Notes under the pieces: model-generated
Told to the model about the DNA's origin: nothing
The model's input: the letters and a program-made list of their open reading frames with translations, nothing else
Databases searched by the model: none
Translations under genes and position numbers: made by a program
In this document: positions 1-10,517 of the stretch, one piece after another
How positions within the stretch are numbered: position 1 is the stretch's first letter
How the letters are laid out: each line of letters begins with the position of its first letter
Virus record (IMG/VR): IMGVR_UViG_2585427755_000006
Source of the DNA: a virus
Lineage: Duplodnaviria; Heunggongvirae; Uroviricota; Caudoviricetes
Length of the DNA: 10,517 bases
Direction: 5' to 3' (one strand)

Positions 1-91
1 TAGACTGGCCCCCTGAATCTCCAGACAACCAATATCACTTAAATAAGTGATAGTCTTAATACTAGTTTTTAGACTAGTCATTGGAGAGCAG

Positions 92-457
92 ATGATTGAT
101 GTCTTAGGACCGGAGAAACGCAGACGGCGTACTACACAGGAAAAGATCGCTATTGTTCAGCAGAGTTTTGAACCGGGAATGACGGTCTCCCTTGTTGCCC
201 GGCAACACGGTGTGGCAGCCAGCCAGTTATTTCTCTGGCGCAAGCAATACCAGGAGGGAAGTCTTACTGCTGTGGCCGCAGGAGAGCAGGTCGTTCCTGC
301 CTCTGAACTTGCTGCTGCCATGAAGCAGATTAAAGAACTCCAGCGCCTGCTCGGCAAAAAAACGATGGAAAATGAACTCCTTAAAGAAGCCGTTGAATAC
401 GGGCGTGCAAAAAAGTGGATAGCGCACGCGCCCTTATTGCCCGGGGATGGGGAGTAA
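92..457 (+). CDS. insC: IS2 transposase OrfA (InsC), 121 aa, HTH DNA-binding
   Basis: ATG at 92 after GGAGAG RBS. Translation [40 protein letters not shown]... matches recalled InsC. The track ORF from 47 is an upstream GTG extension. Confidence 0.9.
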
Positions 458-1320
458 GCTTAGTCAGCCGTTGTCTCCGGGTGTCGCGTGCGCAGTTGCA
501 CGTAATTCTCAGACGAACCGATGACTGGAAAGATGGTCGCCGCAGCCGTCACTCAGATGATACGGATGTGCTTCTCCGTATACACCATGTTATCGGAGAG
601 CTGCCCACGTATGGTTATCGTCGGGTATGGGCGCTGCTTCGCAGACAGGCCGAACTTGATGGTATGCCTGCGATCAATGCCAAACGTGTTTACCGGATCA
701 TGCGCCAGAATGCGCTGTTGCTTGAGCGAAAAACCGCTGTACCGCCATCGAAACGGGCACATACTGGCAAAGTGGCCGTGAAAGAAAGCAATCAACGATG
801 GTGCTCTGACGGGTTCGAGTTCCGCTGTGATAACGGAGAAAAACTGCGAGTCACGTTCGCGCTGGACTGCTGTGACCGTGAGGCACTGCACTGGGCAGTC
901 ACTACGGGCGGCTTCGACAGTGAAACAGTACAGGACGTAATGCTGGGAGCGGTGGAACGCCGCTTCGGCAACGAGCTTCCGGCGTCTCCAGTAGAGTGGC
1001 TGACGGATAATGGTTCATGCTACCGGGCTAATGAAACACGGCAGTTTGCCCGGATGTTGGGGCTTGAACCGAAGAACACGGCGGTGCGGAGTCCGGAGAG
1101 TAACGGCATAGCAGAGAGCTTCGTGAAAACGATAAAGCGTGACTACATCAGTATCATGCCTAAACCAGACGGGTTAACGGCAGCAAAGAACCTTGCAGAG
1201 GCGTTCGAGCATTATAACGAATGGCATCCGCATAGTGCACTGGGTTATCGCTCGCCACGGGAATATCTGCGGCAGCAGGCCAGTAATGGGTTAAGTGATA
1301 ACAGGTGTCTGGAAATATAG
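415..1320 (+). CDS. insD: IS2 transposase OrfB (InsD), 301 aa, DDE catalytic domain; expressed as InsCD fusion by -1 frameshift
   Basis: Translation [23 protein letters not shown]...NRCLEI matches recalled InsD. Overlaps insC in the -1 frame with slippery CAAAAAAG at 408-415. Confidence 0.9.
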
Positions 1321-1658
1321 GGGCAAATCCACATCCCTTCAATTATACCCTCAGCCTTCTGTAACCTTTTCCCGATATAACCATCAGAGCAGCAATGCTT
1401 ACCTGCCAGTGACATGAATGTCATACCGACTACATAATAATCTACTAATAAATCGTGCAAATCGCTGTTGTTCTTTTTCAGACGGGCCATGCACCCGCAA
1501 ATGATCATCGCGTCATCGTCACAACATTGCGGGCGAGATTTTACTTTTGAAGGAATTAATCCCTTAAAACCGGCGGCAATGGACGACCAGGTCACATCTT
1601 CATGATTATTAGCCGCCCACGCTCCCCAACGCTCAAGAACCATCTGAATATCACGCAT
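1245..1658 (-). pseudogene. quuD: Q-family antiterminator quuD, C-terminally truncated by IS2; first 109 codons intact (1332-1658) then 28 IS2-derived codons to stop at 1245
   Basis: ATG at 1656-1658 with GGAG RBS. Translation [26 protein letters not shown]...KAEGIIEGM matches recalled K-12 QuuD to residue 109. The next codon TGG is the first base of the IS2 right end (1331). The track's MWSKL start is an in-frame TTG and was rejected. Confidence 0.7.
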
Positions 1659-1743
1659 CAACTTACTCCACAAAAATCAGACCAGAACGCCAATTACAAG
1701 CAAAAATCAATAAAACAGTATTAGTTGATTGTTATCTCTGACT

Positions 1744-1884
1744 TCATACTCCTGCTCCTGTCAGGGTTTTGGCGTAATTCCTCAGTATTCGGTAATCGGT
1801 CAAAACAGAACTGGGGAAACGATATAAGCGCAGGCGCATCCAGCGGTGGCGAAGAAGTTCTGCCATATTAAACTCAAACATCAT
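1744..1884 (-). CDS. ylcG: Small DLP12-type protein YlcG (46 aa)
   Basis: Hand translation [49 protein letters not shown] overlaps the rusA stop (ATGA). Below the track's length cutoff. Confidence 0.55.
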
Positions 1885-2243
1885 TCATTCCCCATTTCGG
1901 TGATGGTCAGTTCCAGCCTCCCACCTTTGGTAACAGGCATCTTCACAACGCGGTAATCAACGACCTGAGCATCATCCAGCCAGAAACCTGCTTTAGTGAG
2001 TGCGTCAAAAGCGGCTTTTTGCAGATTATCCAGGTCACGGCGACGGCGATCCGGCATGTGGCACTCAATGCGGATTTTCACAGGCATAGCCAGGCCGATA
2101 TCCAGCATTGCGTTTTTAATGATTCGGGCGACGTTATCGCGGTATGCCTGCCCCTCTGCGCTGACGTGCGTGCGCCCGCGATTATGGCGGTAATAGCGAT
2201 TATTGCTCGGAGGCCAGGGTAATGTGATGCTGTAGGTATTCAC
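1881..2243 (-). CDS. rusA: Holliday junction resolvase RusA (120 aa)
   Basis: Translation [41 protein letters not shown]... matches recalled RusA. GTG start overlaps ybcO stop (GTGA). Confidence 0.9.
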
Positions 2244-2530
2244 GCCTTAATAACCCCCTCTTTCAGCCAGATAACCTGTGTTCTCGCCATACCTTCCAGC
2301 GCGCATTCTTTTGCATACTCAGCATCGACAAAATGTGTGCGGCGGTCGATTTCGTCGTGACAGGCAGAACATGCGATGGTGGCAATCAGGTCTGGCGGTT
2401 TGATACCGGTACCGCACAATCCAGCCAGCCGGATATGTGCCAGTACAGACGTTTCAGAATTGCCATTACATACGCCAGGGATTCTTACCTGGCATTCCCG
2501 ACCACGCGCTGCTTTTCTCAAATCAGCCAT
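2240..2530 (-). CDS. ybcO: YbcO, DUF1364 phage protein (96 aa)
   Basis: Translation [38 protein letters not shown]...; ATG at 2528-2530 lies inside the ninE 3' end. The track ORF is extended upstream to 2569. Confidence 0.8.
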
Positions 2531-2693
2531 GATTCCTCCTTGCTGCCAGTCGCAACCATTTTTTATCAACCAGGCTGGCGGTATATCCGAGCAGAGTTGG
2601 TATTTCGGATGGCTTCAGCTCAGGTTTACGCTTACGACGATTTGGTACTTTGTAGATGTGTCCGTTCATGACACGAATAAGCGGTGTAGCCAT
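2523..2693 (-). CDS. ninE: NinE (56 aa)
   Basis: Hand translation [59 protein letters not shown] overlaps ybcN stop (TAATG). Below the track cutoff. Confidence 0.75.
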   Translation of the reverse strand: MATPLIRVMNGHIYKVPNRRKRKPELKPSEIPTLLGYTASLVDKKWLRLAARRNHG

Positions 2694-3148
2694 TACGCCT
2701 CCTGCTTGTCGCGCAGCAGCTGGAACTCGCAGCTCTGCGGAATAGTCAGGTGGCAGCCAATATTCATCGCCCAGGCTTCAACCTTACACAGGAAGACATA
2801 CATCTCTCCGGTATCGAGATCGGAGGTATGACGTAATGACTGAATGGTGGTGATTTCACCGGTTACGACATCAACCAGTTCTTTGGTTTCATAACCGAGA
2901 TAAGTGTGTTTGAGAGCATCTTTTACCCAAGCTGGAGTGGCGAACGTTTTACCCCTGCTGATGAGGTATTCACTGATTTCGCTGTACCACATGTGGCTGA
3001 GTGCATTCTGGGAAAGACTGCGTCTCTCGCGCCATGGTTTAAGCACCATGCGAAAGCATTTGCCGTCCTCCAGATAAGGCTGGATCTGCCGACCGATAGA
3101 GGTGAAGTTACCGCGATGCAGTTTGATGCCATCTTGTGGGAAGTTCAC
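2693..3148 (-). CDS. ybcN: YbcN (151 aa), lambdoid nin-region protein
   Basis: Translation [35 protein letters not shown]... matches recalled YbcN. GTG start at 3146-3148 behind a GGAGGTGA Shine-Dalgarno. Confidence 0.85.
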
Positions 3149-3246
3149 GCTTCACCTCCGCAGAGATCAAACGCTGGATGCAAGATATCGCAGGTGCATT
3201 TCTGCATCTGTGAAGGGAGAAGATAGTTTGGATTGTATGTGCGCAT
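3145..3246 (-). CDS. ylcH: Small protein YlcH-like (33 aa)
   Basis: Hand translation [33 protein letters not shown]. Stop overlaps ybcN GTG (GTGA). GGGGA RBS 5 nt upstream of ATG at 3244-3246. Matches the 33-aa ylcH slot upstream of ybcN in K-12. Confidence 0.5.
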
Positions 3247-3342
3247 AAACGTCCCCGTTTAGCGCAGAAGTCACCGGAGTTGTTCAAGCTCCAATGGCAT
3301 GATTATGGCTGGTTGATTATGGGAAATCAAATGTGCTGAAAA

Positions 3343-3849
3343 TTAGTCTGCCAAGTCTTCCTCAGTCACAACTGGGTAATTCCAAATATCAAAAAAAGCT
3401 ATAGCCTCCTGCCATTTGTTCCATAAATTATCAAGTACTTGTGTAGGTTCCGTACTTTTAAAAACAGAATCAGCCGCATCACCGTTATGAACTTCCTCGT
3501 ACAGTTCCATTATTAGCAGATTAACAAAGTACTGTTTCAACATTAATGCCTGATTACCTTCTTTCTGCTGGCTATCCTGCTTGATGATCTCCATCGCCCG
3601 TACCAGGCACCTGATGATATCCGCTGCATCATTAACGCTCCATTCAGATCCGCGCTTATCTGTAGCTGATGTATTGGCTCTCTCAGCGCAAGCCTTTAAA
3701 GACTCATAAAGGTAAACTCTATTTTGTAGCTGCAGCGCTTTTTTTGACGTGTACCAACTTGCAAGCGCCGACCCCGCTGCGGCTAATGTGCCAAACGCAG
3801 AAATGCCTGCTGCTATTGCACTTAAGTCGGCACTGTCAAAGTTCCACAT
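3343..3849 (-). CDS. Hypothetical 168-aa protein with a single predicted N-terminal transmembrane helix (AIAAGISAFGTLAAAGSALASWY) and an acidic C-terminal domain; no recognised family
   Basis: Clean ORF with ATG at 3847-3849 and AAGGTG RBS. Looks lower in GC than the flanking nin genes (by eye). Sits where K-12 DLP12 has ybcL/ybcM. Confidence 0.7.
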   Translation of the reverse strand: MWNFDSADLSAIAAGISAFGTLAAAGSALASWYTSKKALQLQNRVYLYESLKACAERANTSATDKRGSEWSVNDAADIIRCLVRAMEIIKQDSQQKEGNQALMLKQYFVNLLIMELYEEVHNGDAADSVFKSTEPTQVLDNLWNKWQEAIAFFDIWNYPVVTEEDLAD

Positions 3850-3881
3850 TATCGTTACACCTTATATAAATACCCCTCAGT

Positions 3882-3910
3882 AATATCCAATAAGGTATGT
3901 GAACAATCAA
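3882..3910 (-). promoter_or_regulatory. Candidate sigma70 promoter for the 168-aa gene (-35 TTGATT, 17-bp spacer, -10 GATATT)
   Basis: Minus-strand TTGATTGTTCACATACCTTATTGGATATT about 35 bp upstream of the ATG, directly downstream of the terminator at 4026-4068. Confidence 0.3.
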
Positions 3911-4025
3911 TATAATTTTATCCGTATCGGCACATAGCGATTTGAATGCTACTGGTAATGGTGTCTTTTAGATTATTTCGTCCAGTTTACAGCACCCGTA
4001 TTTTATGAAATGGACTCGCACATTA

Positions 4026-4068
4026 CCCCAAAAAATGCCAGCACTTCCGTCATCGTAGAATGCTGGCA
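4026..4068 (-). terminator. Rho-independent terminator after the 107-aa gene
   Basis: Inverted repeat TGCCAGCA (4036-4043) / TGCTGGCA (4061-4068) followed on the minus strand by TTTTTT (plus-strand A-run 4030-4035), about 20 bp past the stop at 4088. Confidence 0.5.
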
Positions 4069-4087
4069 GTATTTCTAACTAGTGACT

Positions 4088-4411
4088 TTATTGCAACAGA
4101 TTCTGACGGAAATATGGTAACACTCGACTCCACTTATCATCCAGCCACGGCTGGAATTTTACATGTGCCGTTTCTCTGGCGAGGATTGCTCGCGCTCTGG
4201 TGAGTATCTGGGGATATTCTTGCTCGATGGAAGTGAAGCGACCAGCTTCACGATGCTCCGCAACCTGAAGAAGGGGAGTAACGTTCTGGCAGGCGGTTAA
4301 CATCGCATCCCCTGCTCGCCATAACCAGGCGAGTGTGCAAAGTTCGTTATCAGTGAATTGTTTTGTGATTGGGAATTGTTGAACTGCTAGAACGAGAACG
4401 CCAGCATCCAT
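4088..4411 (-). CDS. Hypothetical 107-aa soluble protein; no recognised family
   Basis: ORF MDAGVLVLAVQQFPITKQFTDNELCTLAWLWRAGD... with ATG at 4409-4411 and GGGA RBS. Flanked by its own candidate extended -10 promoter and its own terminator. Confidence 0.65.
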   Translation of the reverse strand: MDAGVLVLAVQQFPITKQFTDNELCTLAWLWRAGDAMLTACQNVTPLLQVAEHREAGRFTSIEQEYPQILTRARAILARETAHVKFQPWLDDKWSRVLPYFRQNLLQ

Positions 4412-4488
4412 TGGCAGTCCCTATAGTAAAACCATAGCTCAGGACGCTTCGTTCAGGATAGATAATTTTATTGTACTTACCTAACTTT

Positions 4489-4500
4489 CTTACTATAGCA
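4489..4500 (-). promoter_or_regulatory. Candidate extended -10 promoter (TGcTATAGT) for the 107-aa gene
   Basis: Minus-strand TGCTATAGT (plus 4492-4500) about 80 bp upstream of the ATG. The -35 is weak, as is common for extended -10 promoters. Confidence 0.3.
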
Positions 4501-4522
4501 CGGTTGAAAAAGTGATTATTAC

Positions 4523-6049
4523 TCAAAAATAAACCTCACCATCAACCATATATTTGAGAGTACTTATCGCCTGCTGGGCGGATATTGTTTTCATTAAAGG
4601 ATAGTGTTTAAAAACAATGCCATTCATAAAATAGATATCACAGGTTTTATTATCTGTATTGATTATGATTTTTTCGAATGTTTTATAGGCAAGTGTACGA
4701 CATAGCTCTCGCCCATTTTTACTGGTTAAGTCAATAGCATGAAAATCACCAAGTGAACTCACCGCTTTACTCTTCAAAGTTTTTAATGATACCGAAGCCC
4801 TTCGTAATTCCTTATCTAATACTCTGATTTTTTCTGCTATAGCGGTAACTTCAGGCGCAACAGATAATGCAGCAATTAAATTATTAATTTTCATCTGGAG
4901 CTCAATAATTTTCAACTCTAAAGTTTCATTAGCATCTTTCTTGTTTTCAACTGGTTGGATTTTGCTACAATTAAAAAGCAACTCATTAATGATATTATAA
5001 TCAACCAAATCTCTCTTTATTGATGGCCTGTCACATCGATGCAGTCTTCTCATCGGACAAACATAATAGCCATGCAAACTTCCAGATACCGCATGAATAA
5101 TCATGGTATTACCACAAGCCTCGCACTTCATAACTGTTCGAAGTAGATTTATCAACATAGGATTTTTGCTACTATTGCTAATACCAAAAGGTGCCAACCG
5201 AATTTCCTGCACAGCGTAAAACAAATCATCTGATATGACTCTGGGATAATAGCCAGCGATTTCACTTATTCCTTTACCTCTTGCACGATATGAAGGTACG
5301 CATATACCTATCAGAGCTTTATTCGCTAATAATTTTTCAATTACAGAAGGCCCCCATGCACTTTCTTTTCCTGAGAAATTTTTTACAGCATGATCATTTA
5401 AATACTTGGCTATTGCATTCAATGAGCGCCTTTCCATCCTGAGTTTAAAAATTAGCTCAATAGTTTTCACCCTGTCGGGGTCTGGAACAAAAGCCGTTCT
5501 TTTGTCATCTAAGGATAGCCATCTAGGACAAGACGCCGTCATAATCGTACCTGATTCCAGTGCATCCTGCCGTTTTTTCTTCCATGATAATTTAACCCGA
5601 CTTGACTTTATCTCGCTTTCTTCATTTGCCCTTTGTGCTATAAGTATGGCTTTTATTAATGAATATGGCTCATTCAAAGAGTCAATATTATAGACTGTAT
5701 TGTCGCAAAGAGTTATAACATCAATACCGTGATTCAAAATCAATTTCAGACGTTCAATCGCTTCACCGACTTTTTCTCTTGAAAGCCTGTCCAGACTTTC
5801 AACTAACAATGTAGTTCCTGGCAATATATAACCATGCTCTATAGCATCTAAAAATTCCGAAAAAGCTCCTGATTGTGCATGCTTTCCTTTGAATGCACTT
5901 AATCCTAAATCTTCATATGTTATGGTATCAAGATAATAATCACTATTTACCTTTAACCATTCAGCAATAAGTCTTCTCTGTCGGTTTAATGAGTCGCCAG
6001 ACATCTGACCTGGTGATGAAAATCGCATATATGCTATGGCTTTTTTCAT
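4523..6049 (-). CDS. ybcK: Large serine recombinase YbcK (508 aa)
   Basis: N-terminal resolvase-type catalytic motif AYMRFSSPGQ, C-terminal cysteine cluster CEACGNTMIIH...YYVCPMRRLHRCD, and a match to recalled K-12 YbcK. AGGTG RBS. AT-rich. Confidence 0.9.
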   Translation of the reverse strand: MKKAIAYMRFSSPGQMSGDSLNRQRRLIAEWLKVNSDYYLDTITYEDLGLSAFKGKHAQSGAFSEFLDAIEHGYILPGTTLLVESLDRLSREKVGEAIERLKLILNHGIDVITLCDNTVYNIDSLNEPYSLIKAILIAQRANEESEIKSSRVKLSWKKKRQDALESGTIMTASCPRWLSLDDKRTAFVPDPDRVKTIELIFKLRMERRSLNAIAKYLNDHAVKNFSGKESAWGPSVIEKLLANKALIGICVPSYRARGKGISEIAGYYPRVISDDLFYAVQEIRLAPFGISNSSKNPMLINLLRTVMKCEACGNTMIIHAVSGSLHGYYVCPMRRLHRCDRPSIKRDLVDYNIINELLFNCSKIQPVENKKDANETLELKIIELQMKINNLIAALSVAPEVTAIAEKIRVLDKELRRASVSLKTLKSKAVSSLGDFHAIDLTSKNGRELCRTLAYKTFEKIIINTDNKTCDIYFMNGIVFKHYPLMKTISAQQAISTLKYMVDGEVYF

Positions 6050-6230
6050 GGTGACACCTGCTAACGTATGTTTTTATAAACCTTAGTGGTGAGATATAAT
6101 TTTTGTTTAATTTTTATTTAAAAAGACAATTAAGGTCACATTATCTTGAATATACAACAATAATCGTATTGCAATTTTCTTACACCATAATCTTGAAAGC
6201 ACAAAAGAATACATAAAAAAAATAAAGACA

Positions 6231-6276
6231 TTAACAAAAAGCATAAAACGAGGCTCATATAAATATAAGAGCCTCC
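6231..6276 (-). terminator. Rho-independent terminator downstream of emrE
   Basis: GAGGCTC (6250-6256) / GAGCCTC (6269-6275) stem with a 12-nt AU loop, followed on the minus strand by GTTTTATGCTTTTTGTT. Confidence 0.4.
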
Positions 6277-6306
6277 ATATTTTAGTCGTTTAGAAACAAA
6301 TTATTT

Positions 6307-6639
6307 TTAATGTGGTGTGCTTCGTGACAATAAATTAATAACCAACACTCCGGCACAAATCAACATCATGCCTATAATGGCTGGCATGTCCAGCCGTTGG
6401 CCGAAAAATCCCCATGACAGTAAGCTAATCAGGACAATACCGACTCCTGACCAGATAGCATAAGCAATCCCTGTAGGAATATAAGCCAGCGTCTGCGCTA
6501 ATAACCAGAATGATGCACAATAACAAATAATTGTACCAACAGATGGCCATAACCGTGTAAAACCTTCTGAAAACTTCATTAAGGTTGTACCAATGACCTC
6601 TGCAAGTATTGCACCACCAAGATAAATATAAGGGTTCAT
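6307..6639 (-). CDS. emrE: SMR-family multidrug efflux transporter EmrE (110 aa, 4 TM helices)
   Basis: Translation MNPYIYLGGAILAEVIGTTLMKFSEGFTRLWPSVG... matches recalled EmrE. The track ORF carries an 18-codon upstream extension. Confidence 0.9.
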   Translation of the reverse strand: MNPYIYLGGAILAEVIGTTLMKFSEGFTRLWPSVGTIICYCASFWLLAQTLAYIPTGIAYAIWSGVGIVLISLLSWGFFGQRLDMPAIIGMMLICAGVLVINLLSRSTPH

Positions 6640-6654
6640 AGCATATTCTTTCCT

Positions 6655-6689
6655 GTTCAAACTGGAGAGAATTGTACTACAGTTTGAAC
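6655..6689. repeat. Perfect 10-bp inverted repeat GTTCAAACTG/CAGTTTGAAC with a 15-nt spacer, between the ren stop and emrE start
   Basis: Read directly from the sequence at 6655-6664 and 6680-6689. Ends about 16 nt before the emrE ATG. No T-tract, so not a terminator. Confidence 0.5.
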
Positions 6690-6706
6690 TCAACTCACCT
6701 GTTTCA

Positions 6707-7009
6707 TCATTGTGTACCCATTGATGTTCTTTTATATACCCTCAATACCCGTTTCATCGCGGCACTCTGGCGACACTCCTTAAAAATCAGATTCGTGCTC
6801 ACCTTTCCTTCCCGTTCTTCTCTGGTAGCGAACCGGTAATACACCGTTCGCCAGACCTTACCATCAACGACCAGGATTCCTGCCCGCGCCATTTTAGCCG
6901 CAGCCTGATTTATGCTGGTTACGGTTGCGCCTGTTACCGCGGCAACGTCCTGTGCACAGAAGCTCTTATGCGTCCCCAGGTAATGAATAATTGCCTCTTT
7001 GCCCGTCAT
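6707..7009 (-). CDS. renD: Lambda Ren-like protein (100 aa)
   Basis: Translation MTGKEAIIHYLGTHKSFCAQDVAAVTGATVTSINQAAAKMARAG... matches recalled lambda Ren. ATG overlaps an upstream in-frame stop (ATGA), as at the lambda P/ren junction. Confidence 0.8.
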   Translation of the reverse strand: MTGKEAIIHYLGTHKSFCAQDVAAVTGATVTSINQAAAKMARAGILVVDGKVWRTVYYRFATREEREGKVSTNLIFKECRQSAAMKRVLRVYKRTSMGTQ

Positions 7010-7104
7010 ACACTTGCTCCTTTCAGTCCGAACTTAGCTTTAATTTCTGCGATCTTCGCCAGAGCCTGTGCACGATTTAGAGGTTTAGGCGCAATCACTT
7101 TCGT
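7006..7104 (-). pseudogene. Probable 3' remnant of replication gene P (last ~32 codons)
   Basis: Minus-strand frame open from 7104 to the stop at 7006-7008, translating ...TKVIAPKPLNRAQALAKIAEIKAKFGLKGASV*. No start codon; an in-frame TAG sits at 7105-7107. Assignment to P is from the lambda P-ren gene order and coupling, not from a verified match. Confidence 0.4.
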
Positions 7105-7213
7105 CTACTCCGTTACAAAGCGAGGCTGGGTATTTCCCGGCCTTTCTGTAATCCGAAATCCCCTGAAAGCACAGCGGCTGGCTGAGGAGATAAATAATAA
7201 ATGGGGGGGCTGT

Positions 7214-7405
7214 ATGCACAAAGCATCTACCGTTAAGTTAAGAACGAGTATCGAGATGGCACATAGCCTCGCTCAAATTGGAGTCAGGTTTGTGCCAATA
7301 CCAGTAGAAACAGACGAAGAATTTCACACGTTAGCCGCATCCCTTTCACAAAAGCTGGAAATGATGGTGGCGAAAGCAGAAGCAGATGAGAGAGACCAGG
7401 TATGA
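7214..7405 (+). CDS. Small 63-aa protein, lambda exo-xis orf63-like by position and size
   Basis: ATG at 7214 behind a GGGGGGG Shine-Dalgarno. Translation MHKASTVKLRTSIEMAHSLAQIGVRFVPIPVETDEEFHTLAASLSQKLEMMVAKAEADERDQV. First in a coupled chain of small genes. Confidence 0.6.
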   Translation: MHKASTVKLRTSIEMAHSLAQIGVRFVPIPVETDEEFHTLAASLSQKLEMMVAKAEADERDQV

Positions 7406-7485
7406 CAACCACTGAATGCATTTTTCTGGCAGCGGGCTTCATATTCTGTGTGCTTATGCTTGCCGACATGGGACTTGTTCAATGA
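7402..7485 (+). CDS. Possible 27-aa hydrophobic micro-protein (MTTTECIFLAAGFIFCVLMLADMGLVQ)
   Basis: ATG overlaps the stop of the upstream gene (ATGA) and its own stop overlaps the next ATG (ATGA). One predicted TM helix. No independent support. Confidence 0.3.
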   Translation: MTTTECIFLAAGFIFCVLMLADMGLVQ

Positions 7486-7697
7486 CACCTCAGCAGGAAA
7501 ACGCCCTTCGCAGCATTGCCCGTCAGGCTAATTCTGAAATCAAAAAAGCCAGACAGCAGTTTCCGGATAAAAACGTCGATGACATTTGCCGTAGCGTACT
7601 GAAGAAGCACCGCGAAACGGTAACGCTGATGGGATTCACACCGACTCATTTAAGCCTGGCAATCGGCATGTTAAACGGCGTCTTTAAGGAACGATGA
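7482..7697 (+). CDS. Small 71-aa protein, lambda exo-xis orf61-like by position
   Basis: Translation MTPQQENALRSIARQANSEIKKARQQFPDKNVDDICRSVLKKHRETVTLMGFTPTHLSLAIGMLNGVFKER. The track ORF is extended upstream to 7416. Confidence 0.55.
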   Translation: MTPQQENALRSIARQANSEIKKARQQFPDKNVDDICRSVLKKHRETVTLMGFTPTHLSLAIGMLNGVFKER

Positions 7698-7789
7698 ACA
7701 TGAAAAGCAAAATCATCAGGGAGCTACAGGCTCCTTTTTTATTATTCGCATTCACCCTCAAGCGTATTAACCAACAATTCAGGGATTAA
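7694..7789 (+). CDS. Possible 31-aa micro-ORF (MNMKSKIIRELQAPFLLFAFTLKRINQQFRD)
   Basis: ATG overlaps the upstream stop (ATGA). Fills the gap before the TraR-like gene. Could be chance. Confidence 0.2.
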   Translation: MNMKSKIIRELQAPFLLFAFTLKRINQQFRD

Positions 7790-7795
7790 TGGAAG

Positions 7796-8017
7796 ATGGC
7801 AGACATCATTGATTCAGCATCAGAAATTGAAGAATTACAGCGCAACACAGCAATAAAAATGCGCCGCCTGAACCACCAGGCTATATCTGCCACTCATTGT
7901 TGTGAGTGTGGCGATCCGATAGATGAACGAAGACGCCTGGTCGTTCAGGGTTGTCGGACTTGTGCAAGTTGCCAGGAAGATCTGGAGCTTATCAGTAAAC
8001 AGAGAGGTTCGAAGTGA
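7796..8017 (+). CDS. TraR/DksA-family C4 zinc-finger protein (73 aa), lambda orf73-like
   Basis: CCECGDPIDERRRLVVQGCRTCASCQ gives a C-x2-C...C-x2-C zinc finger after an acidic N-terminal helix, typical of TraR-like RNA polymerase secondary-channel binders. Size and position match lambda orf73. Confidence 0.75.
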   Translation: MADIIDSASEIEELQRNTAIKMRRLNHQAISATHCCECGDPIDERRRLVVQGCRTCASCQEDLELISKQRGSK

Positions 8018-8316
8018 GCGAAATTAACTCTCAGGCACTGCGTGAAGCGGCAGAGCAGGCAATGCATGACGACTGGGGATTTGACGCAGACCTTTTCCAT
8101 GAATTGGTAACACCATCGATTGTGCTGGAACTGCTGGATGAGCGGGAAAGAAACCAGCAATACATCAAACGCCGCGACCAGGAGAACGAGGAAATTGCGC
8201 TAACGGTAGGAAAGCTGCGCGTTGAGCTGGAAGCAGCAAAATCAAAACTCAACGAGCAGCGTGAATATTACGAAGGTGTTATCTCGGATGGAAGTAAGCG
8301 TATTGCTGAACTGTAG
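8014..8316 (+). CDS. Ead/Ea22-like protein (100 aa, coiled-coil C-terminus)
   Basis: GTG start overlapping the upstream stop (GTGA). Translation MSEINSQALREAAEQAMHDDWGFDADLFHELVTPSIVLELLDERERNQQYIKRRDQENEE... matches a recalled Ea22-like family. Confidence 0.55.
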   Translation: MSEINSQALREAAEQAMHDDWGFDADLFHELVTPSIVLELLDERERNQQYIKRRDQENEEIALTVGKLRVELEAAKSKLNEQREYYEGVISDGSKRIAEL

Positions 8317-8566
8317 GCCTAGGTTGAATGTACAAGATTTGCATACGTAAGAGCAAAAGACAAGGGAGAATTGATCAGAGTTATTACCTGCCAACCAACG
8401 GGATATTACGCTTACGTACCATGTAACTAGGAATCCTTGAAGTGGCAGCCTAACTGTGGATACACTGAAATGGCGATTTGGTAACATGTTTCGCACAAGG
8501 CTGTTACTACGCTTAGAGATAATCAGTCATGATTAAATGCTTTGTAAAAAGTAAAAGGAAATTACA

Positions 8567-9181
8567 ATGAAAAAATCAACACTAATTTTAGGGCTTACGT
8601 TAATTGTCTCATCTCAAATACCATCGGCAATGGCAAAAAATGAATCAAAACTTTGGGTTGTTGTTGATCGAACGGAAAGACATACCTGCCCTTCAAGTAA
8701 ATGTGGAGTGGCTGGGAAACTATTTTTCAGGGAAGGCGTAGATTTTCTAGAAAAAAAAGGTGAATGGGTTCGTATAACTGAGCCATATTCAGCCTCATGT
8801 GTGGGAGGGGAAAGCGAATATATTAAAGAAGGTAATAAATCCTGCACAAGAAAAAACGGAATCGTTAATGGCAAGTTTTCAGAATGGGTTAAACTTAGTG
8901 ATCTTAGCAGTGAAAGGCCATCAGATCCTGCTGAAAATGCGAGCAGAAATGATACCTTAATCAAAGGATCTGATGACTACCGTATATACAAAAAAGAGTT
9001 TTCTTCGGCAGCTAGGAAGTTAATAAGTGAAGGTGTCTGCACGGAGAGCGATTTTAAGGAAGTTGGAGGGTGGATGGCATCAAGCAATAAGGGTGAAAAC
9101 ATCTATTTCACATATTGCGGAGGAATGACGTTGTCGAACAGAATATATCTAGACGTTAAAAGTGGAAAGACTTTTAGATAA
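8567..9181 (+). CDS. Secreted/periplasmic hypothetical protein (204 aa) with cleavable signal peptide and an SH3b-like N-terminal region
   Basis: Signal peptide MKKSTLILGLTLIVSSQIPSAMA with AxA cleavage motif. The stretch LWVVVDRTERHTCPSSKCGVAGKLFFREGVDFLEKKGEWVRI resembles a bacterial SH3 fold. Six cysteines. AAGGAAA RBS. Lies in the AT-rich island. Confidence 0.7.
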   Translation: MKKSTLILGLTLIVSSQIPSAMAKNESKLWVVVDRTERHTCPSSKCGVAGKLFFREGVDFLEKKGEWVRITEPYSASCVGGESEYIKEGNKSCTRKNGIVNGKFSEWVKLSDLSSERPSDPAENASRNDTLIKGSDDYRIYKKEFSSAARKLISEGVCTESDFKEVGGWMASSNKGENIYFTYCGGMTLSNRIYLDVKSGKTFR

Positions 9182-9252
9182 TATGATATTACCAATGACA
9201 GCATTAATTTAATGCCTCCATAGAATTATCTCTAGGAAGTAAGTATAAGAAA

Positions 9253-9289
9253 AGTCCGCACAATGAGCTGCTGCGGGCTTTGTGTTATT
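9253..9289 (+). terminator. Candidate rho-independent terminator after the secreted-protein gene
   Basis: AGTCCGCA (9253-9260) / TGCGGGCT (9272-9279) stem with one G-U pair and an 11-nt loop, followed by TTGTGTTATT. Confidence 0.4.
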
Positions 9290-9474
9290 CGCCATATTTT
9301 ATGAAGCAAATACGACACTATAGATAATTAAGCGTTACTGGTTGTCGATTCCTCACTCATTCCTGCTGATGGCTGTCTTCTTGTATGTGTCATTGAAGGG
9401 TAATATCGCGTAAAAAGATACCGGAAGTATCCGCGCCGCTATGATTGTCTTTCTCCTGATGCAGGAAAAGCAGA

Positions 9475-9813
9475 ATGACTAAATCAGCAGCAGAGCGCAA
9501 AGCCGATCAGAGAGCCAAGCAAGCATCATCCGGTATGCGTAAGCTGGAGCTTGTACTTGATGCTCAGGAAATTGAAATGCTGGAGCGTAACTGAGCCACG
9601 CGCCGCTTCAGGCGTGCGCCTTACGAGTTTGGTGAGTACATAGCGTTACTGAGCCGCCAGGATGATGCACGTGTGCGCTGGCGTATAAAATCGATTAGCA
9701 GAAAACGTTGCCGTAAGTGCGGCGAGAGAGTTCCTGTTAATTCATGCCCGTGTAATGGTGACTCACAATACTGGGTGACCAAAGGCTGGCACGAAACAAA
9801 ATTAATGATATAA
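9475..9813 (+). pseudogene. 112-codon reading frame interrupted by one in-frame TGA (9592-9594): 39-aa N-terminal part plus 72-aa C-terminal part with a zinc-ribbon motif
   Basis: ATG at 9475 gives MTKSAAERKADQRAKQASSGMRKLELVLDAQEIEMLERN, then TGA, then the same frame continues ATRRFRRAPYEFGEYIALLSRQDDARVRWRIKSISRKRCRKCGERVPVNSCPCNGDSQYWVTKGWHETKLMI*. No ATG in the second part; an internal GTG at 9673 is the only alternative start. Confidence 0.45.
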
Positions 9814-9841
9814 ATCTCTGTGACATGTCACGGAGGCGGCA

Positions 9842-10270
9842 ATGAAATTAGACCAGCAATATCTAAAAGATCTACTTATCGCATTCGAAAAAACTTATGG
9901 CCCTGACACGATGCTTAGTGAACTAGAGGATAATGGCTTTAATAGATATGACCAAAATTTTATTTTCCATATGCGATTATTATGTGACTACGAATTAATA
10001 GTTAGGGTTGATGGAAAACCTGGGTTCGGTCATATAATGTCCAACGAGTTAGGGGAAGGTGTTGAATATAGTTGGCTCGAAGTACCACTGAGGTTGACAG
10101 CAAGAGGGCATGATTTTATTGCTGACTTACGTCAAAAGGAGGTCTGGCAAGCTATAAAAACAAACTTTAAGGATGAGGGAATTGGTACTCTTATGAGTGT
10201 TTCAAAATCACTAGCAAAAGGCTTTGCAAGAAAAAAAATAAAAGATATTACAGGAATAGATATTGAATAA
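9842..10270 (+). CDS. Hypothetical 142-aa protein, prophage cargo, no confirmed family
   Basis: ATG at 9842 with GGAGG RBS (cacGGAGGcggcaATG). Clean AT-rich ORF ending 36 bp before the IS911-like terminus. Confidence 0.7.
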   Translation: MKLDQQYLKDLLIAFEKTYGPDTMLSELEDNGFNRYDQNFIFHMRLLCDYELIVRVDGKPGFGHIMSNELGEGVEYSWLEVPLRLTARGHDFIADLRQKEVWQAIKTNFKDEGIGTLMSVSKSLAKGFARKKIKDITGIDIE

Positions 10271-10306
10271 TTCTTAGCATAAAGCAACTACTGCCTTTGG
10301 TGAAAA

Positions 10307-10517
10307 TGAAGTGGTTTACTGAATTTGGCCACCTGAACAGAGGTGATATGCTCACCTCAGAACAACACAGGTGCCATAATGAAAAAAAGAAATTTCAGCG
10401 CAGAGTTTAAACGCGAATCCGCTCAACTGGTCGTTGACCAGAATTACACCGTGGCAGATGCAGCCAGCGCTATGGATGTCGGCCTTTCCACAATGACGCG
10501 ATGGGTGAAACAATTAC
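10307..10517 (+). mobile_element. Left end of an IS3-family insertion sequence closely related to IS911 (partial, runs off the window)
   Basis: Terminus TGAAGTGGTTTACTGAATTTGGCCACC resembles the IS911 left inverted repeat TGAAGTGGTCAACAAAAACTGGCCACC, followed by an IS911-type orfA. Confidence 0.8.
10379..10517 (+). CDS. IS3-family transposase OrfA (IS911 InsN-like), N-terminal 46 codons only
   Basis: Translation [46 protein letters not shown] matches recalled IS911 OrfA apart from a few substitutions. AGGTG RBS. Confidence 0.85.

Follow-up and report, generated by a model that had tools for sequence, protein, structure and literature searches.

IS2 interrupts the antiterminator gene quuD after codon 109 in a DLP12-like cryptic prophage module of Escherichia coli

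Introduction

Yin et al. (bioRxiv 10.1101/651190) have identified the Pfam family PF06530 with the lambdoid Q antiterminators of Q21/Q933W type. Work on the protein of phage 21 has shown that Q loads on RNA polymerase at a binding element, that the helix-turn-[loop]-helix of Q21 binds this Q-binding element and that the C-terminal residues of the RNA polymerase-bound protomer contact the polymerase (10.1101/651190). In E. coli K-12 the corresponding protein of the DLP12 prophage is QuuD (YbcQ, b0551), which is 127 residues long. DLP12 lies at argU with the integrase gene intD, and the genes upstream of quuD are arranged in the order ybcN-ninE-ybcO-rusA-ylcG. The phage Q-type antiterminator is reported to control the lysis operon of DLP12, and this operon is reported to influence the production of vesicles (PMC7918800, citing Rueggeberg et al. 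2013).

Cryptic prophages of E. coli routinely acquire IS elements in their genes, and DLP12 of K-12 has itself decayed in this way with an IS3 copy in renD and an IS5 copy in nmpC, quuD remaining intact. In mutation-accumulation lines of E. coli, IS2 was seen to insert anew 71 times and to recombine twice, with no target motif (PMC5009759). A simple insertion is thus favoured a priori where a copy of this element is met at a new site. Among the IS2 copies of K-12, IS2A (annotated at 381260-382590, 1331 bp) is located in yaiX, where it carries orfA and orfB with an A6G frameshift motif and meets its flank cleanly at the terminal base. Here we describe a variant copy of IS2 that is joined in the same clean manner to a quuD allele, and consider what this is likely to mean for the antiterminator and for the prophage that encodes it.

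Results

The window analysed is a stretch of 10,517 bp that represents the entire draft contig JOSJ01000061.1 of assembly GCA_000713655.1, as established by an exact look-up of the 137-residue protein. The organism is given as Escherichia coli in the sources, and an origin in Shigella was rejected accordingly. An IS copy is present at either edge, IS2 on the left and an ISEc52-type element on the right, so that the contig is bounded by repeats, that is, by assembly breaks. The first base of the contig is base 1 of IS2 because assemblies break at repeats, and not for a biological reason; the left flank beyond IS2 lies outside the window. At the right end approximately the first 211 bases of an ISEc52-type element of the IS3 family (10307..10517, + strand) are found inserted after GGTGAAAAT, between a DUF2513 gene and what is the next small ORF in related genomes. 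This insertion is separate from the event in quuD. Identification of the right-hand element as IS911 was considered and ruled out, identical copies elsewhere being labelled ISEc52 by PGAP. The two ends are asymmetric in that the whole of IS2 is included at the left, stopping exactly at base 1, while the right end stops 211 bases into its element. This may stem from how the repeat graph was resolved during assembly, or the left neighbour may itself be a repeat.

The left-hand element is a complete IS2 of the IS3 family, IS2 group (1..1331, + strand). It is a sequence variant whose 1331 bp are matched along their full length, at 100% identity, by copies in many E. coli records, from both chromosomes and plasmids, and a full-length match of this kind is not a chance pattern. 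Compared with IS2A of K-12 the window copy, although identical to those found in many other strains, is 95.7% identical over the stretch compared (1188 identities in the first 1241 nt of IS2A), with the alignment beginning at base 1 of both elements. IS2 terminal repeats are about 41-42 bp in length. The left terminal inverted repeat (TAGACTGGCCCC..., 1..42, + strand) and the right (...TAGGGGCAAATCCA, 1290..1331, + strand) are imperfect and are present at the exact ends of the element (TAGACTGG... and ...CAAATCCA); in an ungapped comparison of the termini only 15 of 45 positions match, and the repeat shows only with a 1-nt offset. Two overlapping reading frames are present, as expected for the IS2 group. 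The InsC-like orfA (92..457, + strand) matches HTH_Tnp_1 (PF01527, E = 1.8e-19) and contains the A6G motif for -1 frameshifting at 409-415 on the same strand, located directly in the sequence. The frame of orfB (415..1320, + strand) encodes the DDE integrase-core transposase domain (rve, PF00665, E = 8.5e-20) together with matches to rve_3 (PF13683) and HTH_21 (PF13276). In length, ends, reading frames and frameshift motif the element is in essence the same as IS2A.

From position 1332 rightwards the window is 100% identical, by megablast, to the intact quuD loci of other strains. The matches begin at query base 100, which is window position 1331; this represents a one-base ambiguity, A being the base at that position in both IS2 and quuD. 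The part of quuD that is present (1332..1658, - strand) starts with an ATG at 1658 and is intact up to the breakpoint, (1658-1332+1)/3 giving 109 codons. Up to that point nucleotide and protein alignments to uninterrupted K-12 quuD show 325 of 327 nucleotides and 108 of 109 residues to be the same (P36 instead of T36), and there are no mismatches in codons 1-109 to the quuD of strain F1005. The intact protein is 127 residues long in both K-12 and the close relatives, and the window protein departs from both immediately after M109. The frame then continues into the right end of IS2, antisense to the 3' end of orfB, for a further (1331-1248+1)/3 = 28 codons and closes with a TAA at 1247-1245 (C-terminal tail with stop, 1245..1331, - strand). 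The product is a hybrid of 137 residues in which native residues 110-127, 18 codons in all, are missing from the frame and are replaced by the 28 IS2-derived residues. A sequence-only reading of this DNA had proposed each of these points, namely a Q frame intact for 109 codons that runs into IS2 at 1331/1332, 28 IS2 codons before a stop at 1245, the replacement of the last 18 quuD codons and a window starting at IS2 base 1. All of them are borne out by the alignments, the codon counts and the contig record. The identification of the element as IS2 and of the gene as a quuD allele is also upheld, PGAP having given the name quuD to the identical intact gene.

IS2 generates a 5-bp target duplication, and the pentanucleotide CATCC adjoining the element (1332..1336; quuD nt 323-327, GGATG on the coding strand) is for that reason taken as the expected right-hand copy. 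A simple insertion predicts that the far junction reads ...GCCATTAACATCC|TAGACTGG..., with the quuD 3' remnant and the CATCC duplication abutting the left end of IS2; written at other lengths the same predicted junction is TTAACATCC|TAGACTGGCC or ATGCCATTAACATCC|TAGACTGGCC. The predicted form GCCATTAACATCC|TAGACTGGCCCCCTG had no exact match in the collections genome_contigs and metagenome_contigs, and neither had the observed right junction, both collections probably being without this draft genome. The only places reached by exact look-ups of the IS2 OrfA and OrfB proteins were unrelated sites of insertion, located in long complete genomes.

A second and independent insertion of IS2 into a Q21-family Q gene was found in E. 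coli GN04592 (NZ_CP095538.1; positions 2770-4100 of the extracted locus L001), where both flanks are visible and carry the 5-bp duplication CGCCA. The Q protein of that locus is 96% identical and the orientation of IS2 relative to Q is the same as in the window. Both halves of the gene are annotated by PGAP as partial pseudogenes. The two cases differ in that IS2 lies after codon 83 in GN04592, in a different lambdoid prophage, and the IS2 copies differ at 45 of 1331 positions. Both ends of the window IS2 coincide exactly with those of the GN04592 copy, the left terminus there abutting a flank. The two hits of IS2 on Q21-family genes, alike in orientation, may have arisen by chance.

The junction is absent from 5,426 complete E. 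coli genomes searched by megablast. The hybrid protein is recorded as WP_249402839.1 ('antiterminator Q family protein'), a one-sequence cluster found on 3 contigs, and there are four E. coli entries in UniRef. Three complete genomes, those of F1005, strain 1409 and ET358, are 100% identical to the window over 1332-10307 and have an intact quuD. The insertion is accordingly a recent and lineage-specific event, restricted to one small lineage.

The window protein matches PF06530 over profile positions 1-111 of 118 with a score of 168.9 bits (cut-off 26) and an E-value of 4.8e-50. When intact QuuD was compared with the PDB using phmmer, residues 8-87 were matched to phage 21 Q (6P18/6JNX, E = 7.6e-8). 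An AlphaFold model was made from a 62-sequence alignment, the first sequence of which was an intact allele (P0003) 98% identical to the QuuD of the relatives. The model had a pLDDT of 74 and a pTM of 0.71, and its best structural matches were the Q21 structures (TM 0.63, probability 1.00) followed by sigma region 4 domains. Its last long helix spans residues 92-112, with a pLDDT of about 93 at residues 101-110, and IS2 interrupts this helix three residues short of its end, in the sigma-region-4-like helix-turn-helix domain. Conservation was assessed in approximately 130 homologues of 75-99% identity. Among these L110, M111, L113, L117, E118, M119 and D120 are nearly invariant and positions 94, 112, 116, 121 and 122 vary freely, so that it is a conserved LMxLDxxLEMD tail that the insertion has removed. 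A homologue that naturally ends near residue 109 was looked for as an alternative to truncation: no complete homologue does so, and all entries ending before about residue 120 are partial or are fragments at contig ends. With its PF06530 match, its homology and fold shared with Q21 and its place between the nin/rusA region and the lysis genes, the latter as seen in the identical relatives, the window quuD belongs to the Q21/Q933W family as a disrupted member that lacks the conserved C-terminal segment 110-120.

The genes around quuD form a module of DLP12 type, emrE-ylcJ-ybcK ... ybcN-ninE-ybcO-rusA-ylcG-quuD. Immediately upstream of quuD is ylcG (1744..1884, - strand), identified from its ORF, a match to Phage_YlcG and the annotation of relatives. 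It is preceded by the Holliday-junction resolvase gene rusA (1881..2243, - strand; PF05866, E = 6.9e-23), part of the nin-region module. The gene order from ybcN to quuD is that of K-12 DLP12, and the porin gene and lysis cassette found downstream of quuD in the identical relatives are likewise shared with it. In place of the ybcL/ybcM of K-12 the window has a gene with a P22AR C-terminal domain (4088-4411) and a 168-residue ORF (3343-3849). The prophage-borne emrE (6307-6693, - strand) gives a protein of 110 residues from the annotated start, which presumably departs from that of K-12 at a small number of positions (e.g. RLDMPAII, VLVINLL). The neighbouring ylcJ is annotated as frameshifted in relatives.

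The attachment sites lie outside the window, and the integration locus was read from the relatives that are 100% identical over 1332-10307. In these genomes the prophage is located between ybhB and ybhC, an interval that we take to be the lambda attachment site, and has a different, lambda-type int/xis, whereas DLP12 of K-12 is found at argU with intD. The module sits in a cryptic prophage of about 25 kb with its own integrase and excisionase (NZ_OY754353.1, 3152748-3173723; also locus L026). In F1005, where quuD is intact, the prophage is without cI, cro, N and O and has only a stub of P, its DNA-packaging gene is joined directly to a truncated tail-tip gene, and of the tail-fibre genes only fragments remain. 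Inspection of F1005, one of the three identical relatives, thus shows that the immunity, replication and head genes are already missing from the prophage. On the 3' side of intact quuD in F1005 a convergent porin gene is followed by essD, rrrD and an Rz-like lysis gene. A scan for consensus promoters and terminators downstream of intact quuD revealed no convincing late promoter on the quuD strand.

Discussion

We propose that IS2 transposed into the quuD gene of a DLP12-like cryptic lambdoid prophage, directly after codon 109, and that it did so by a simple insertion with duplication of 5 bp, a reading to which we would give a probability of roughly 0.8. The transposase genes lie antisense to quuD, and translation of quuD passes M109 into the right end of IS2 and takes in 28 unrelated codons before the stop. 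The resulting 137-residue hybrid would most likely be an inactive or weakened antiterminator. Conservation of the missing segment and its position in the modelled fold make it likely that antiterminator function has been lost or reduced, and, by analogy with Q21, truncation at this point could plausibly damage contacts to DNA or to the polymerase. Some residual activity of the hybrid is possible, most of the Pfam domain (positions 1-111 of 118) having been kept. If the hybrid is inactive or weak, Q-dependent read-through into the lysis cassette of essD, rrrD and the Rz-like gene would be lost or reduced.

In an alternative explanation, IS2 marks the endpoint of a rearrangement, either two IS2 copies having recombined or transposition having been aberrant, with deletion or inversion of the DNA beyond the left end. 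The 3' end of quuD, possibly a late promoter, the porin gene and the lysis cassette would then no longer be adjacent. The contig ends at IS2 base 1 with the far flank out of view, the junction predicted for a simple insertion was not found in either collection and deletions brought about by IS elements are on record for E. coli (PMC5009759). A case of comparable appearance exists in another genome (AP027637.1, 2468327-2481166), where IS2 has a lysis cassette and its TolA-like genes directly on one side and recT/lar/integrase genes directly on the other; this prophage is Rac-like and the arrangement looks like an IS2-bounded internal deletion. Against this, the failure to find the junction is uninformative given that the collections are unlikely to include this draft genome, the right junction falls cleanly at the end of the IS, as expected of a primary insertion, and the ratio of 71 insertions to 2 recombination events is unfavourable to recombination, so that we regard a rearrangement as unlikely. 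It must also be considered that the junction could be an assembly artefact, a repeat contig having been wrongly joined to the quuD contig. The contig belongs to a draft assembly and both begins and ends in IS sequence, and it is unusual for a contig to contain a whole repeat copy and to stop exactly at its first base. Similarity to intact quuD loci nevertheless breaks exactly at the terminal nucleotide of IS2, as produced by transposition and not by a k-mer mis-join, and the same 137-residue hybrid occurs on 3 contigs and in the four UniRef entries. Given a junction that several contigs share and that coincides to the base with the IS end, mis-assembly is very unlikely, to the extent that we give this explanation hardly any credence, although the body of IS2 could be a collapsed consensus.

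The hybrid might on the other hand be active or altered in function, for instance as a dominant-negative Q, and the allele might persist through selection that acts on the phenotypes reported for DLP12, namely those of the lysis cassette, biofilms or vesicles. The hybrid keeps 109 of 127 residues and nearly the whole of the Pfam profile, and the DLP12 lysis operon is reported to be under Q-type control and to have an effect on vesicles (PMC7918800). Within the C-terminus, however, no part is more conserved than the segment that has been lost. The added tail is transposase sequence read in antisense, which would not be expected to fold, and the allele is very rare, occurring on 3 contigs and in none of the 5,426 complete genomes. 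We consider selection for an active hybrid to be very improbable. A more novel reading, whether one in which IS2 is the endpoint of a larger IS2-mediated rearrangement by which the late promoter and lysis cassette were lost or moved elsewhere, or one in which the hybrid acts as an altered or dominant-negative Q and changes lysis-gene expression and with it envelope, biofilm or vesicle phenotypes in this lineage, is also improbable in our view. Simple insertion of IS2 with damage to the C-terminus of QuuD remains the preferred explanation.

Two further suggestions of the sequence-only reading concerned the effect of the insertion on the prophage, and these have not been sustained. There is no support for the suggestion that loss of the Q C-terminus helps to keep the prophage locked and cryptic, as the prophage of F1005 is already defective with quuD intact. 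The physical separation of Q from a downstream late region, which had also been put forward, matters little: Q is a diffusible protein that acts by loading on RNA polymerase at its binding element (10.1101/651190), and 1.3 kb of DNA between the gene and its target is in itself no block. Only damage to the protein is therefore of importance. In the preferred reading the event would represent decay of a prophage that was already dead and would probably have been evolutionarily neutral.

Neither the element nor the gene family nor the process is new, and this is ordinary prophage decay by IS insertion. Its value lies mainly in annotation, where WP_249402839.1 is the product of read-through from quuD into IS2 and should be treated as deriving from a pseudogene. 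It is also worth recording that the DLP12-like module belongs, in identical relatives, to a prophage between ybhB and ybhC. Should the lysis cassette, expressed under QuuD, affect biofilms or vesicles as reported for K-12, the lineage would constitute a natural quuD mutant, a minor point at the level of the strain. A further observation concerns an IS1-rich 4.5-Mb E. coli genome (AP027713.1, 1415928-1428206), in which apparently the same ybhC-adjacent prophage has an integrase gene and an excisionase gene with the same IS2 protein variants encoded between them, a further instance of IS-driven decay.
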